The notes: generated from the letters alone by a model not told the origin. A stretch of 57,677 bases of DNA, filler included, from Sluysia triapertura (GCA_046118255.1; 4 parts of 4 records of this genome joined end to end with filler, not necessarily neighbours in it); one strand, 5' to 3'. Shown: positions 7,362 to 19,903, counted from the first letter of the whole stretch. Translations and numbers: made by a program.

Positions 7362-9499
7362 TTATTTTAAACTTACGGCTATGAAAATATATAACTTTTT
7401 AGTTTTGTTTACTTTACTTGATCTTTTTTGCCGTAAAATAAAAAATTCTTTAATCTCTCTATTTGACTTTAATTGAAAATAATCACTAACATAGAAAACA
7501 ATGAAATTAACAAGAATTTTATTACAATTAACAAACAATTTAGCATTTATTTTTAAAATTCTTTTCTTAATAATGATTTTCCTAGTATGTTTCGACTTCG
7601 GTTTTTGGGACATTCTAAAAAAACAAAAAAATGTAAATAGGCATCAATGTTGATAATAATATTATAAGTGTTATTAAAATTAGAAATTACTTTAGAGTAG
7701 TTTTTGAAAACCATGTGATAGAGTAATATTGGAGAAGTCATTTTGATAAGACAACAATTGATCAGACTTGAGTCTGTAATTGCAAGTAGTTGTTGAGGAT
7801 CGTGCCGAGGTTTAAAATTGATTAAGGAGAGATACTGACATTTTAGTATTGAAAGATCGCTGCGTTCGAGTTAATGTATTGGAATTATTGTTTTTGTCTG
7901 ACTATTTCTGGATGTCATTTAACCATTTAACCAAAATTTTCATCAAGAAGCATGTAACTTGAGAGTTTTCGTCTTTTCTAGAGCCATCATTCCAACATCT
8001 AGTTAATTCTATATTTAATTTATCTGGGAATAATACTGAATGAATATACTGAGTGATTTCTCAACTTGACAACCAATTTTGGAAGTTACTATTATGTCCT
8101 CATTGACTGAGTACGCTGTTTTAACTAACATTAAACCTGACTTGAAATCCTCATTATGTGAACAAGCTTGAAATAGTTGTGATCTTGGAATATCAACTAC
8201 GCAACATGTGTGGATATTGTCTTTGAATCTCTTAGGACCAGTGGCAAATGGTTCATAGTCGTTAACGTACTTAGAAATCGTCAATGATGACTTAAAAACA
8301 CGAAATTTGATATATCGTCATCTACCTTGACTTGGTAAACAAAAGGATGTTTTTCTGGATTACAGATGTTACTAAATAATTTCTGATTACTTTTTGCATT
8401 CGAAGCAATCATACTATAATTTTGATGCATATCTTTAATTGTCTTCCAGCCAACTTTAGTATCGATATTAATAACATACGAATAGAAATTGTTCATTACA
8501 TTATTAGTGTTATTTATTACTTTATCAAAGTTTATGGTATGAGCGTCGTCAGATTGATGTTCTAAACATATCGTAATAGGAATCTTCTCCGTATTATTGG
8601 GACATCTTATTGATATTACATATAAGTTTGGTAAGAAATGTTCAAAATCATCAAAATACATTGGATTACAAATAAATACTTGTAATTCATGAGTTAATTT
8701 GAATGAATTCTGTGATTCATTGGTAACTTTATTTTAATCAGTTTTATATTACTTTATAGAAACTATGCAATTTATGAACATCAGTAGTAATACACAGCGA
8801 AATTTTTAACACATCAAAAGAAACATGTAAAAGCACTTCAGCTAACTTTTCTTTTATTACTTTACGTGAGGAAAACTTTAAATAGGTTATTTTGTTCAGT
8901 ATATGTTGTAGCCAATTTAATTCTTTTATTAATATATTTTCATTCATTCTAAGTTTTATAGCTGCTGATCGTTTTATTAATTTAGTCTTTTCAAAATTAA
9001 TTCCGATGTGATGTTATTTTAACTCAATTATCATGATTGTACAATAATAATAATCTCATAAATAATTTTTAGCTTCTTTCACCTTTAAATCACTAATAAA
9101 ATTTTCCTTTGTATGATCGATATTTTGTCAGGTTTACTAGCAAATAATGCTGACAAATTCTCTGCATATTGTAATTGGCTACAAACGATATTAATAATTT
9201 TGATGGGGTAGTCATCAAAATACTCATTAATAGAGACAGACTCCACATTTAATGAACTGTCATCAGTCGACAGTTAATAAAGTAATAACAAATGAATTTA
9301 AATGCCTATCGAGTGATGGCAGGTTGATCAATCTTAAAACTTTGTATTTGTTGTAACATAACCACTATCAATAGTGACGATAACTGTATATATGACTTAA
9401 TAATATCACCATTGATAGTGGTAGCTACAAAATTGATAATTTAATAAAAACAGTAGTTCCAATAATATACAATAAAAATTATGATAATAATAATAACAA

Positions 9500-9542
<43 letters not shown>

Positions 9543-9945
9543 GTTGTTGTTGTTGTTGTTGTTATTCCAAAATGCACAAATCCTTTTACATGATAATAAC
9601 ACAAGATTTCTTTTTATTTCTAGACATATTTGAATTTCTTAGTTATAAGCCGTATGTTAAAAGGTTGTGAGTTTATAATGTTTTAAATTAATATTATAAT
9701 GTGATTTTAATATTTTTTGATCTACAAGATTGAATGTTGAGAAATTATGACTTGAGGTGTTTTGGATTAGTTTTAAATGTATTCTTGATAGTTTAAGATG
9801 TAAGTTGTAGTTATGATGTTGTGAGATTATGAGTTAAAATGTTCTACGTGAAATGTAAATGTGCATTAATGATTTTGGATGTAAGTATGGTTTTGATGTA
9901 AGTTTTGAATTTAAAATGTTTTGAGATATGTTTTATTTACTCCCA
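7362..9945 (-). mobile_element. Cassette copy A (right end truncated): fragmented orphan ORF, inverted-repeat module, ATT tract, T/G-rich arm
   Basis: Chain of same-strand ORF pieces 8947-8744, 8661-8281, 8284-8015 and 7741-7362. Sequence 9567-9935 aligns by eye with 19966-20240 (e.g. tacgtgaaatgtaaatgtgcattaatgattttggatg vs tacgtgaattttaaaatatacattgatattctggatg). Confidence 0.65.
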
Positions 9946-10540
9946 AACGCAGACCATCAGATATTAATTTATATTTGCGATCATTATGTTTTTCCTTGTC
10001 GATACTTTTTATTTTGTCTATATGAAACTTATTTATATTTTAGTTTCATAATTCAAAATGATATTTAAAAAATAATTTAATCGTTAAAAAAATTAAAGAT
10101 TTCTCGATTAATTAATCTTTAATTTTTGTAGCCCTACATTAAAATTATGTTTTATTTTAATATTGAATTTTTAATATACATTGAAATCCACACGACAATA
10201 ATAAATTTACTACGGAAAAATAGTATATTAATGCATACGTTATAAACAAAAAATTACAAATTATTGAAGTATTGAAGTTTATTTTGTTCAATTATTTGAT
10301 GAATAGAGATTAACAAAAATTCTAAAATTCAAGACCGCATTAATAAAGTTTATAATAATTCGCTATTAAAATATAAAATACTAAATAAAGAACATAAAGA
10401 TAAATTTTGTTTTAAAATCTTGAAGATAAATAGCTTGAATTCTTATTTGTTTACTAATTTATATATTTATAATCGTTTTAATAGAATTCTGTTATCATTT
10501 TAAATAAAACTTACTCAGTTAACTCTAGCCTTACTTTTAA

Positions 10541-10751
10541 CCCTTTCGCTGAAATTTTTCTACCGCTGTGCGCATATATTTCAGTGGTTGCGAGTTTATT
10601 TGTGTTGAGCAGTTTGAGTTACAGTCAAAAGTTCTTTATCTGCTAGTTCGGGACCTAAGACGGGAAATATATTATTAAGAAAAAAATATACTCATTTGAA
10701 GCGTATGATACATTATTTTTATGAATATATACGTTTAGAGCAGTGAAAGGG
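10541..10751. mobile_element. piggyBac-type MITE
   Basis: TTAA|CCCTTTCGCTG ... CAGTGAAAGGG|TTAA: 10/11 terminal inverted repeat with TTAA on both sides; 211 bp, non-coding. Confidence 0.88.
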
Positions 10752-17398: not shown

Positions 17399-17564
17399 CC
17401 CATTTATGCCTGTTGTCTATAGTATCTACAGTCAAATAATTATGAATATTATAGTCCTAACAAACAGAAAACCTACATTATGATTTTTTTTTAATTTTTA
17501 TCTGTTTGAAAACAAATACTAAAACTGTTATAAGTCCGTTACACGCCTTATGAGCTTAAATGGG
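17399..17564. mobile_element. Degenerate piggyBac-type MITE
   Basis: CCCATTTATGC ... GCTTAAATGGG|TTAA (10/11 inverted match). The left flank is AATT rather than TTAA. Confidence 0.55.
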
Positions 17565-17862
17565 TTAATAAATTATGTTACAAATAAATAATGTTAATAA
17601 ATATTATTTAGTTCTTGCGAAAGTATTAGTTTAATCTTAAGCTCAAACTTTTTTTTGTTTCGGTTCAGTTCAGTTCAGCATTAAATAAAATAATTAAATT
17701 CTTAATGACTTTTATGTGTTTTAATTATTTACCAGTGTGATTTATTTACGCGAAATATTTTTATTTTTATAAAATAATTAATTATAAAAACATGATTTTA
17801 TAAATGAAATTTTTAACTTTCATATATGTAAGAAATATTAAACATTATTTATAATTTTGTAG

Positions 17863-18140
17863 GACCAGGAAGTAAAGTTATTACACAAAGCAATCCCAGT
17901 ATAGATAAAATATCCGGTTCTCATGATAGTAGAGAAATAGGATATGACGATTTTATAGATGAATCCTTATCAGATTCTGATAAAAGCATTAGTTCTGATT
18001 CATCTATATCGGCAAGTTCGATATTATCATCTATTAACAAAAAGCCAATTAATAAAGTTAATGGATCCAATGGTAATTTCAGTTTAGGAGATTTAGCTAG
18101 TTTGACAGTATCGAATGACAACGGTTTGATAATTTGTTAG
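17863..18140 (+). CDS. Probable exon (possibly terminal) of an unidentified gene; Ser/Asp-rich
   Basis: ttttgtAG acceptor at 17861-17862, then a phase-1 open frame PGSKVITQSNPSIDKISGSHDSREIGYDDFIDESLSDSDKSISSDSSISASS...LIIC* with more balanced composition than the flanks. Confidence 0.55.
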
Positions 18141-18251
18141 TGTAAATATTTTCACTATTTCATATGTGCAGTGTAATTTTTTCAACTAAATTGTAATGTT
18201 TTGTTTTTTGCCGCAGATATTTGAAAATTCATTTAAAATATCGTGTGCATT

Positions 18252-19903
18252 TGTTACACTTAAATCGAGTGATTAGAACTTAAAAGATTAATGAAAATTT
18301 CTTATATAAAAATTACTTAAAATATTAATAAAATTATTTTAGTACCTTGTATCACATATTACTTGGTTATTTTAATGTAGAACTAAATACCGAATATCTC
18401 GATCACATGTCTTCAAAATGTATTGATTAAGTGTTTTCTAAAGTATCTCGATTACTTGCTTATATAGCCGCTTGATAAGTAGTTAATAAAATTGTTAAGC
18501 CAATTTTAACATTATATTATATAATAACACTTTAATTTATACTGGAACTGGTCTATAATCGCTGGTTTGTTTTGCATATTTATTTAATTTACATATTTTG
18601 GTTTAATAAACATAGACTTTATATTGGTTTAATATAATATTGCTTTATGAAATGTACTTATAATATTTTAAAATGCACATACTTTATTACAATCCGTGTG
18701 TCTTGTTTGCCTCGCAAATGAAATACTCAGAATTTATAATATAATATATTAACTTTTGAATTCCGAAATAAAAAATAAAAAGGAGATATTGTTGTAGATT
18801 TGGTAATGTTATGTTTGGTAATGTTAATTTTAACTGACACCAATTTAGTTGAGTAATGAACCGTTTAATTTTGAAATCAAAATTGATATAATTTTTATTT
18901 GTATCATTAAATCTAAGTTCGTTACAAATATTATGATTAAAATTTTTATGTAGTCCTATGCTCAAAAGTTTAAGAAAATCAATTAAAAAGAAATAAACAA
19001 TTATAATTTTATTGATTAAATTTTGCTCTTATACCTTTGTGCACGTCATTTAGCTTCGCCCAAGATTGATTATCTAAAATAAAATGAAAGTTTGAGTTAT
19101 AGATAAGATAAACAAAAGAAATAATTACATTATGAGGGTACTGTAAGACTTGGAAAATCCACGCCATTATATTTTGATCTTGAAACAGTAAACAGTCTGT
19201 ACATTTAATTTTATTAGAATTAAGTTTAAAATTACACTGTGATTTTTCATACATTTAGTTTGGCGTTAATTTAATTCTTTTTTTATATTAATTACGCTTT
19301 AGAATTTTTATAATTGAAAACTTTTTACAAATTTTTAACAATTTAAAATATTTTTCTAATTCTGTCTTTTTTTGAAATTTTTTTTGTGACCATGTTAAAT
19401 CTGATTAGTTGTTCAATCAGATTGTTTTATTTAGTTGTACGTGTGTGGTAGATGTGGCAGAAAGAGAAACTGTTGATTGGGCAGTCAATTTAAGTGCACT
19501 TTAATAATCAAATTTCATTGACTGATCAATCATAAAGATACAATTTATATACAGCATGAATCAATATGGTTGTCACCATTAAGTGGAAATCTGTCAATGA
19601 AATGATTAAAAATGGTGACAAGCAATTGTGATTAGGATTGATAAATAGTCACTATGAGGTGTAACTATTGATTAATTTCAAGTAATAAAATTGATTATAA
19701 TAATAATGAAAAGATAAAAATGATAATAGTAATAATAACAAGATGTTATTATTATTATTATTACAAAAATGCATAAATTCTTGTTAAATTTGCAAACACG
19801 ATCTTACTTATAATTGTCTTAAATTTCTTGACATATCTAAAAGCCAAAGATGATAAAAGTTAAGAATGATAATAATAATAATAACAAGAACGATAATGTT
19901 ATC

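Follow-up and report, generated by a model that had tools for sequence, protein, structure and literature searches.

The murine leukemia virus (MLV)-type gammaretroviruses carry the GACG hairpin pair, a packaging and dimer signal made of two adjoining stem-loops that lie in the non-coding leader between the primer site and the first gene and can take up alternative pairings (excerpts of PMC3265304; see also PMC5086612). Foamy viruses hold two tandem hairpins within a retroelement, in the form of RNA polymerase III (Pol III) dumbbell microRNA cassettes (excerpt of PMC3993851), and among gypsy-like elements, tandem repeats, extended non-coding regions and additional genes peculiar to one family are found in Burro, Vesta/Juno with its ORF3, and Retand (excerpts of PMC6431247, PMC5408684 and PMC11963269). 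Here, we analysed a stretch of 57,677 nt, filler included (the window), from Sluysia triapertura (GCA_046118255.1), in which four parts of four records of this genome are joined end to end and are not necessarily neighbours in it. Three units of the window, A, B and C, each contain a pair of long-loop hairpins next to a decayed reading frame on the minus strand, and a fourth, D, has a related leader; family members were considered inside the window only. With a probability of roughly 40%, we read the hairpin pair as a signal that acts in cis in the RNA, serving packaging or translation, and that belongs to the cargo cassettes of a family resembling long terminal repeat (LTR) retroelements.

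The pair resembles the gammaretroviral one in its side-by-side stem-loops, its place in a non-coding leader and its alternative pairings, but it has loops of 27-32 nt, it precedes cargo rather than gag, and no LTRs were found around units A-D. The accessory-gene build of planarian Burro, bdelloid Vesta/Juno and plant Retand, as far as the excerpts on them describe it, recurs in element E, another element of the window; in contrast, a long-loop hairpin pair is not mentioned in those excerpts, and A-D are without gag, pol, terminal repeats or Pfam domains. Helentron and DINE-1 elements share with these units a short inverted repeat with a microsatellite and occasional gene capture (excerpt of PMC4067079), whereas the hairpins here are internal and long-looped; a Helitron test for subterminal inverted repeats or a 3' palindrome at the unit ends, which are placed approximately, found none. 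We found no description of a long-loop hairpin pair common to unrelated cargo genes in a literature search that was not exhaustive, and supplementary repeat libraries may hold the family. Little mapping has been done of the RNA signals that act in cis in invertebrate retroelements, and elements with unmatched genes escape protein-based annotation. The hairpin pair, with its fixed geometry, paired changes and one-strand loop motif, offers a handle for finding and classifying the family genome-wide; should it be a packaging label for unrelated genes, it would reveal the way in which a mobile family takes up and exchanges its cargo. In the window the copies are dead, and nothing suggests a host role.

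Hairpin pairs of fixed geometry in a common leader

The six arm pairs reported in a first-pass annotation of the sequence were rechecked, and their coordinates, matches and spacers all proved exact. No strand is assigned to the hairpins themselves. In unit A, hairpin A1 (9257-9322) lies nearest to the reading frame and has 17-bp arms at 9257-9273 and 9306-9322, matching at 14 of 17 positions around a 32-nt loop, while A2 (9361-9422) has arms at 9361-9377 and 9406-9422 (16/17) and a 28-nt loop. In unit B, the arms of B1 (12572-12627; 12572-12584 and 12615-12627) match perfectly (13/13) around a 30-nt loop, and those of B2 (12678-12738), 17 bp long at 12678-12694 and 12722-12738, match at 16 of 17 positions around 27 nt. 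In unit C, hairpin C1 (19474-19532) has arms at 19474-19489 and 19517-19532 (14/16) and a 27-nt loop with a 10-base palindrome in it, and C2 (19570-19621) has arms at 19570-19580 and 19611-19621 (11/11) with a 30-nt loop and can be extended to 19567-19624. The hairpins are thus 52-66 nt long, with arm centres 41-49 bp apart, and the two of one module are separated by 37-50 nt, with centre-to-centre distances of 102 (A), 108.5 (B) and 92.5 nt (C). G-C pairs make up 37 of the 91 arm pairs, in a window of about 25% G+C. The seven mismatches favour no strand, as had been noted at first: three are G.T on the plus strand, two are G.T on the minus strand and two are purine-purine. Five of the seven are of the transition type, as we infer for decay after insertion. 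Two additional short-loop hairpins (19398-19424 and 19628-19682) flank the pair of unit C, and a lone GC-rich inverted repeat with a 26-nt spacer occurs at 5665-5722, without a partner, an alignment to any module or a significant DNA fold.

The first-pass annotation had named an equal frequency in composition-matched shuffles as the result that would speak against a selected structure. We scanned the whole window for inverted repeats with a spacer of 15-45 nt and at least four G-C pairs, at settings picked with the finding already known, and compared three score cut-offs with 200 dinucleotide shuffles within 300-nt blocks. Single inverted repeats numbered 12, 10 and 7 at the three cut-offs, where the shuffles averaged 3.8, 1.4 and 0.47. 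Tandem pairs were exactly those of A, B and C at every cut-off, whereas all 200 shuffles together gave 4, 1 and 0, with a maximum of one in any shuffle; at the strict cut-off, three real pairs therefore stand against none in 200 shuffles.

The hairpins occupy the same place in each unit. On the minus strand, a start motif is followed by a G-poor non-coding leader of 0.7-1.4 kb, a 13-base motif, an AAT/ATT fold-back, the two long-loop hairpins and the reading frame, which is decayed and begins within about 220 nt of the pair. The leaders of A-D are homologous in five of six pairwise comparisons (z 4.6-7.8), the exception being B-D (z 0.5). Units B, C and D open with TGGCCAAC, followed 12-14 nt on by AAATTTTA (three matches, 0.01 expected), and at this start motif the G content falls abruptly from 14 to 3-5 per 100 nt. 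The 13-base motif, AAAATRCAYAAAT, is common to A, B and C and has four matches in the window, the fourth being unrelated at 44241, against 0.2 expected; the same doubled 10-base word closes units B and C.

In unit A, the G-poor non-coding leader (9600-9945, minus strand) is homologous to those of B, C and D and has no recognisable start motif; it is followed by the 13-base motif (9569-9581, plus strand) and an AAT/ATT(GTT) tract (9480-9563, no strand assigned) which is itself a fold-back. Unit B begins with the start motif TTCTAATT..TGGCCAAC..AAATTTTA (13912-13959, minus strand) and its abrupt drop in G, and continues with the leader (12900-13911, minus strand, where G is 5.8% and C 19.9%), the AAAATRCAYAAAT motif (12880-12892, plus strand) and an AAT/ATT fold-back (12772-12861, no strand assigned) with a palindromic centre at 12831-12848. 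In unit C, the start motif (20434-20481, minus strand) contains TGGTGGCCAAC at 20456-20466; below it lie the leader (19981-20433, minus strand) and AAT/ATT tracts (19690-19980, no strand assigned), with the 13-base motif at 19766-19778 and a near copy at about 19968, the block being duplicated. Unit D (51240-53285, minus strand) consists of a start motif (53255-53285), a homologous leader block, an AAT tract and a weak decayed frame, and the left arm of A1 recurs in it as a 17-base copy at 52434-52450. A Thr/Pro-rich frame at 41228-41626 (minus strand) also lies beside an AAT tract, without a leader or a hairpin pair. The frames of A-D are mutually unrelated (p at least 0.11 in all six pairs), and no cargo is common to any two copies. 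We hold with high confidence that the units belong to a mobile or endogenous-virus family.

Paired changes, folds and the origin of the stems

The first-pass annotation had held that the geometry of the hairpins is kept and their sequence is not. This holds for B1, C1 and C2, none of which aligned to A1, A2 or B2 at p<0.03, but not for the other three: among 110 comparisons, of which 10 reached p<0.03, A2 could be aligned with B2 from one end to the other, including the loop (z 7.3), and an alignment was also found for A1 and B2 (z 4.6). The homology of A1, A2 and B2 makes it probable that each module gained its two hairpins by duplication of a single unit of about 100 nt. When the 18 pairs of A2 and B2 were compared, nine were unchanged, five had changed on both sides, one had changed on one side and three were unpaired in one copy; 92% of cells were paired, a value reached by 15 of 500 shuffles in this comparison of two sequences. 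With a covariance model of A1, A2 and B2, no other significant copy came up in the window, C2 scoring E 1.3 and B1 E 6.5 and C1 being unlisted. The two-sided changes in five of 18 pairs and the fixed position of the hairpins in a common leader support the proposal of a selected structure, which we regard as very probably real. In the minus-strand loops, AA-N0-2-TCAY occurs within the first 14 nt in five of six, against 2.8% of background windows; this motif was chosen after loop inspection, and three of the loops are kin.

Two-sided changes without G.U intermediates, as in A2 and B2, would also be produced by arm-to-arm copying. The hairpins could then have arisen neutrally, as a duplicated quasi-palindrome without function in which template switching or gene conversion keeps the two arms alike; local fold-back slippage in the adjoining AAT/ATT tract and the missing pair in D are in line with this. 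However, the loop length of 27-32 nt, the spacing of 92-108 nt, the position and the polar loop motif persist in units with unrelated genes, and we consider a neutral origin highly unlikely.

The same paired changes bear on sites read in double-stranded DNA. In such a reading the arms would be inverted half sites of a promoter or enhancer upstream of the gene, and GATGACAG and CCAAT words, which we take to be TGACA- and CCAAT-type half sites, do recur in the arms, at a fixed place upstream of the gene. However, the arms change in pairs and the site is not kept, and CCAAT points inward in B1 and outward in C1. Of all the explanations considered, this one fits worst and is very improbable. The related suggestion of paired protein-binding sites three helical turns apart also fits poorly, because the arm centres lie 41-49 bp apart and the arms change in a paired way.

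Single hairpins folded with z-scores of -2.0 to -7.2 on either strand. A2 reached -31.1 kcal/mol on the minus strand and -20.9 kcal/mol on the plus strand, and its minus-strand fold consists of an 18-bp stem with a 7-bp lower stem. A competing pairing exists in every module: the left arm of A1 can form a 7-bp hairpin of its own, the B2 left arm overlaps an alternative 8-bp hairpin with the flank (12666-12688), and the C1 loop and right arm can pair instead with the C2 loop. Kissing between loops 1 and 2 of the modules was limited to 4, 4 and 6 bases.

Near-perfect hairpins with unstructured loops and an origin by tandem duplication would suit a pair of microRNA- or siRNA-like (small interfering RNA) precursors in the element leader, comparable with the foamy-virus dumbbells, whose stems would be kept for Dicer-type enzymes while the arms drift with changing targets. 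A size of 52-66 nt is that of precursor microRNAs, and the long minus-strand stem of A2 is in keeping with it. Canonical Drosha substrates have a stem of about 35 bp, and the stems in the folds look shorter than that; the best folds share no strand, and the loop is conserved about equally to the arms, the opposite of the microRNA pattern as generally understood. No match in the window, be it to a microRNA, ribozyme, IRES or SECIS family, reached the Rfam gathering score, and the four chance-level matches at E<=10 include none on the hairpins. The foamy-virus cassettes differ further in that no Pol III B box was found near modules A, B and C on either strand, and in that the hairpins here lie 37-50 nt apart. 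We therefore see small-RNA precursors as an unlikely explanation of the pair. A search for a hammerhead core near the hairpins, as a test for Penelope-like elements, found none.

Indirect links to LTR retroelements and a proposed role of the hairpin pair

Element E (24293-28868, minus strand) is bounded by direct terminal repeats of about 230-250 nt at 28868-28640 and 24542-24293 (z 22), with a TGG-starting site directly after the 5' repeat and a gag-like frame of weak match (E 0.22). The start motif of the units occurs inside it, at 26235-26270, just upstream of a phosphodiesterase pseudogene. The compound motif is found in B, C and E and in none of 100 shuffles, for a pattern derived from these same sequences. 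The phosphodiesterase gene is intronless, which is a mark of capture through RNA, and element E looks like a retroelement capture of host mRNA. It also has a frame with a hydrophobic stretch and short T-rich tandem repeats, the pseudogene is PDE4-like, and there is no pol. In C and D, the start motif opens with the same eight bases as a tRNA-Ile primer site printed in an excerpt of PMC1084362; a search of the window for tRNA genes of the host found none. Given its internal place in E, the motif could be a primer site, but also an internal promoter or a splice signal; if it is a primer site, the hairpins would lie between primer site and first gene. A Ty3-like reverse-transcriptase fragment (16608-16787, minus strand, E 1.3e-9) is on the same strand as A-C and is cut by an assembly gap. 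We rate the chance as even that the units are kin to LTR retroelements, most likely of a Ty3/gypsy type carrying accessory or captured genes.

Pairing is kept while the letters change, as expected of a signal for the element's own machinery. In the favoured reading of a cis-acting RNA signal, the pair would have arisen through tandem duplication of a unit of about 100 nt and, in active elements, would have folded in the minus-strand RNA and been bound by an element protein, to which the stems, held by pairing, would present a conserved unpaired loop. The pair may have tagged the RNA for packaging or dimer formation, or may have served as a switch between packaging and translation, comparable with the pair of hairpins that gammaretroviruses have between primer site and gag; the few present mismatches would be decay after insertion. 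Of the packaging or replication hairpins proposed in the first-pass annotation, the packaging option fits the position best; a role in RNA packaging or translation is put forward as tentative, somewhat short of an even chance.

Several observations weigh against this reading. Unit D keeps the leader without a clear long-loop pair, and element E has the motif with neither leader nor hairpin pair. The likeness to a primer site is incomplete, as the start-motif copy of B differs at two of 11 bases and A has none, and in E, which has a TGG site of its own, the motif lies internally, 2.4 kb beyond that site, and so is not necessarily a primer site. Four of the six hairpins fold slightly better on the plus strand, and wobble pairs show no strand preference. 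The loops contain no common self-complementary sequence and no GACG tetraloop, so that the hairpins are not members of the gammaretroviral pair. The covariation comes from two alignable copies. None of the cargo frames gave a gag, pol or env match, and neither direct nor inverted terminal repeats were found to bracket A, B, C or D (all z<=0.6); as A-D have no terminal repeats, their link to the LTR family is indirect, through element E. The reverse-transcriptase fragment lies 2.6 kb from B, the 1.5 kb tested being non-coding, and so may be an unrelated insertion.

Watson-Crick stems without strand bias would also be expected of a signal acting in DNA, and the six hairpins fold as DNA with z-scores of -2.2 to -5.5. 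On such an account, the leader would be a region common to the segments of a DNA virus that is multi-segment or helper-dependent and has a single gene on each segment; the hairpins would extrude, in supercoiled or single-stranded DNA, and serve as an origin, a nick site or an integration motif. Multipartite single-stranded DNA viruses have a stem-loop in their common region, and here one unrelated gene per unit lies behind a common non-coding region in units that open at the same motif. Parvovirus-like elements are known from planarians (excerpt of PMC3198968). The polydnavirus host-integration motif likewise consists of adjoining, conserved inverted repeats around an unconserved spacer, with one set per cargo segment (excerpt of PMC10025437); that motif, however, keeps its sequence and is split on integration, whereas the hairpins here covary and are paired, internal and intact, and the host is not wasp-like. 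Moreover, no Rep, helicase, capsid or integrase was found in any frame scanned within the window, the loops, by eye, show no common rolling-circle nonamer, and the start motif sits within the LTR-bounded element E. We consider a DNA-level signal unlikely. A still less likely reading is that A-D are segments, now integrated, of an undescribed system in an invertebrate, either a multi-part virus or a helper-dependent retroelement; were this so, each segment would carry one orphan gene, the hairpin pair would be an address label for a common packaging or replication protein, and acquiring the leader would suffice for new genes to join.

Decayed cargo frames and their surroundings

The first-pass annotation had placed three cargo open reading frames downstream of the pairs. 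The minus strand does carry real coding sequence there, but the frames are decayed, with coding z-scores of -5.8 (A), -6.6 (B) and -4.1 (C), compared with -0.8 to +0.6 on the plus strand and -2.8 to +0.3 in four non-coding controls; the frame of unit D (z -2.6) is inside the control range. Cargo A (7550-9250, minus strand) is a decayed frame that spans some 560 codons and is broken by several stops and frameshifts. Cargo B (11035-12465, minus strand) is decayed with its final 288 codons open, and the stretch from hairpin B1 to 12465 contains four stops, which suggests that it is untranslated. Cargo C (18687-19470, minus strand) is decayed and mostly open from 19254. An alternative genetic code, with stops read as Gln, was rejected, as the frames are interrupted by frameshifts and by stops of all three types.

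No Pfam family was found in the cargo frames, searched as stop-to-stop frames and as 23 read-through frames, and PHROGs and NCBIfam were also blank, cargo C included. The large protein sets were searched only with the last 288 codons of cargo B and one piece of cargo A. For the cargo B query, phmmer against 1.84 billion representatives gave no match, and no relatives appeared in a word-index search, in PDB or in bacterial and archaeal genomes, the best ESM Atlas value being 0.78. The 150-codon piece of cargo A had no relatives in a set of longer proteins only or in phages (ESM Atlas best 0.84), and two read-through frames of cargo A found nothing in PDB. Single-sequence AlphaFold models had a predicted local distance difference test (pLDDT) score of 34, and a fold search from one of them was uninformative (template modelling score, TM, <0.2 to the query). 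Cargo A looked by eye somewhat like a DEDD exonuclease motif, but this found no support. Two more decayed orphan frames without a Pfam family lie at 20750-21640 (plus strand, z -3.2) and 21838-22500 (minus strand, z -4.5), one of which points away from the leader of unit C.

The window consists of AT-rich animal DNA that contains assembly gaps and a small number of host exons, and the rest of it is largely transposon debris, with mariner and Tc1 pieces, a non-LTR reverse transcriptase and the Ty3-like fragment. A host exon at 45281-45802 encodes a capicua-like HMG box, for which the best named matches, over the box, are trematodes (70-74%), with nematodes at 70-72% and most insects at 64-67%. 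These matches point to an invertebrate host that has no close relatives in the database, and only weakly to a flatworm. An OB fold of the HELZ2 type at 3717-3953 (plus strand) is a probable host exon, and further probable ones lie at about 6921-7210 and at 17832-18140 (plus strand), these later exons being judged by splice signals only; units A-C may sit antisense inside introns of this HELZ2-type gene. Between units A and B, at 10537-10755, lies a miniature inverted-repeat element of about 220 bp with TTAA flanks, presumably piggyBac-like, and a Tc1-like element at 39829-41032 has terminal inverted repeats of about 75 bp and a broken transposase. A dispersed motif of about 36 nt occurs on the minus strand at 20606-20641, 31881-31916, 47686-47721 and 56518-56554 and, more weakly and on the opposite strand, at 34196-34253. 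It resembles a short GT..AG intron with self-complementary ends, and one copy lies 140 nt above the start motif of unit C.

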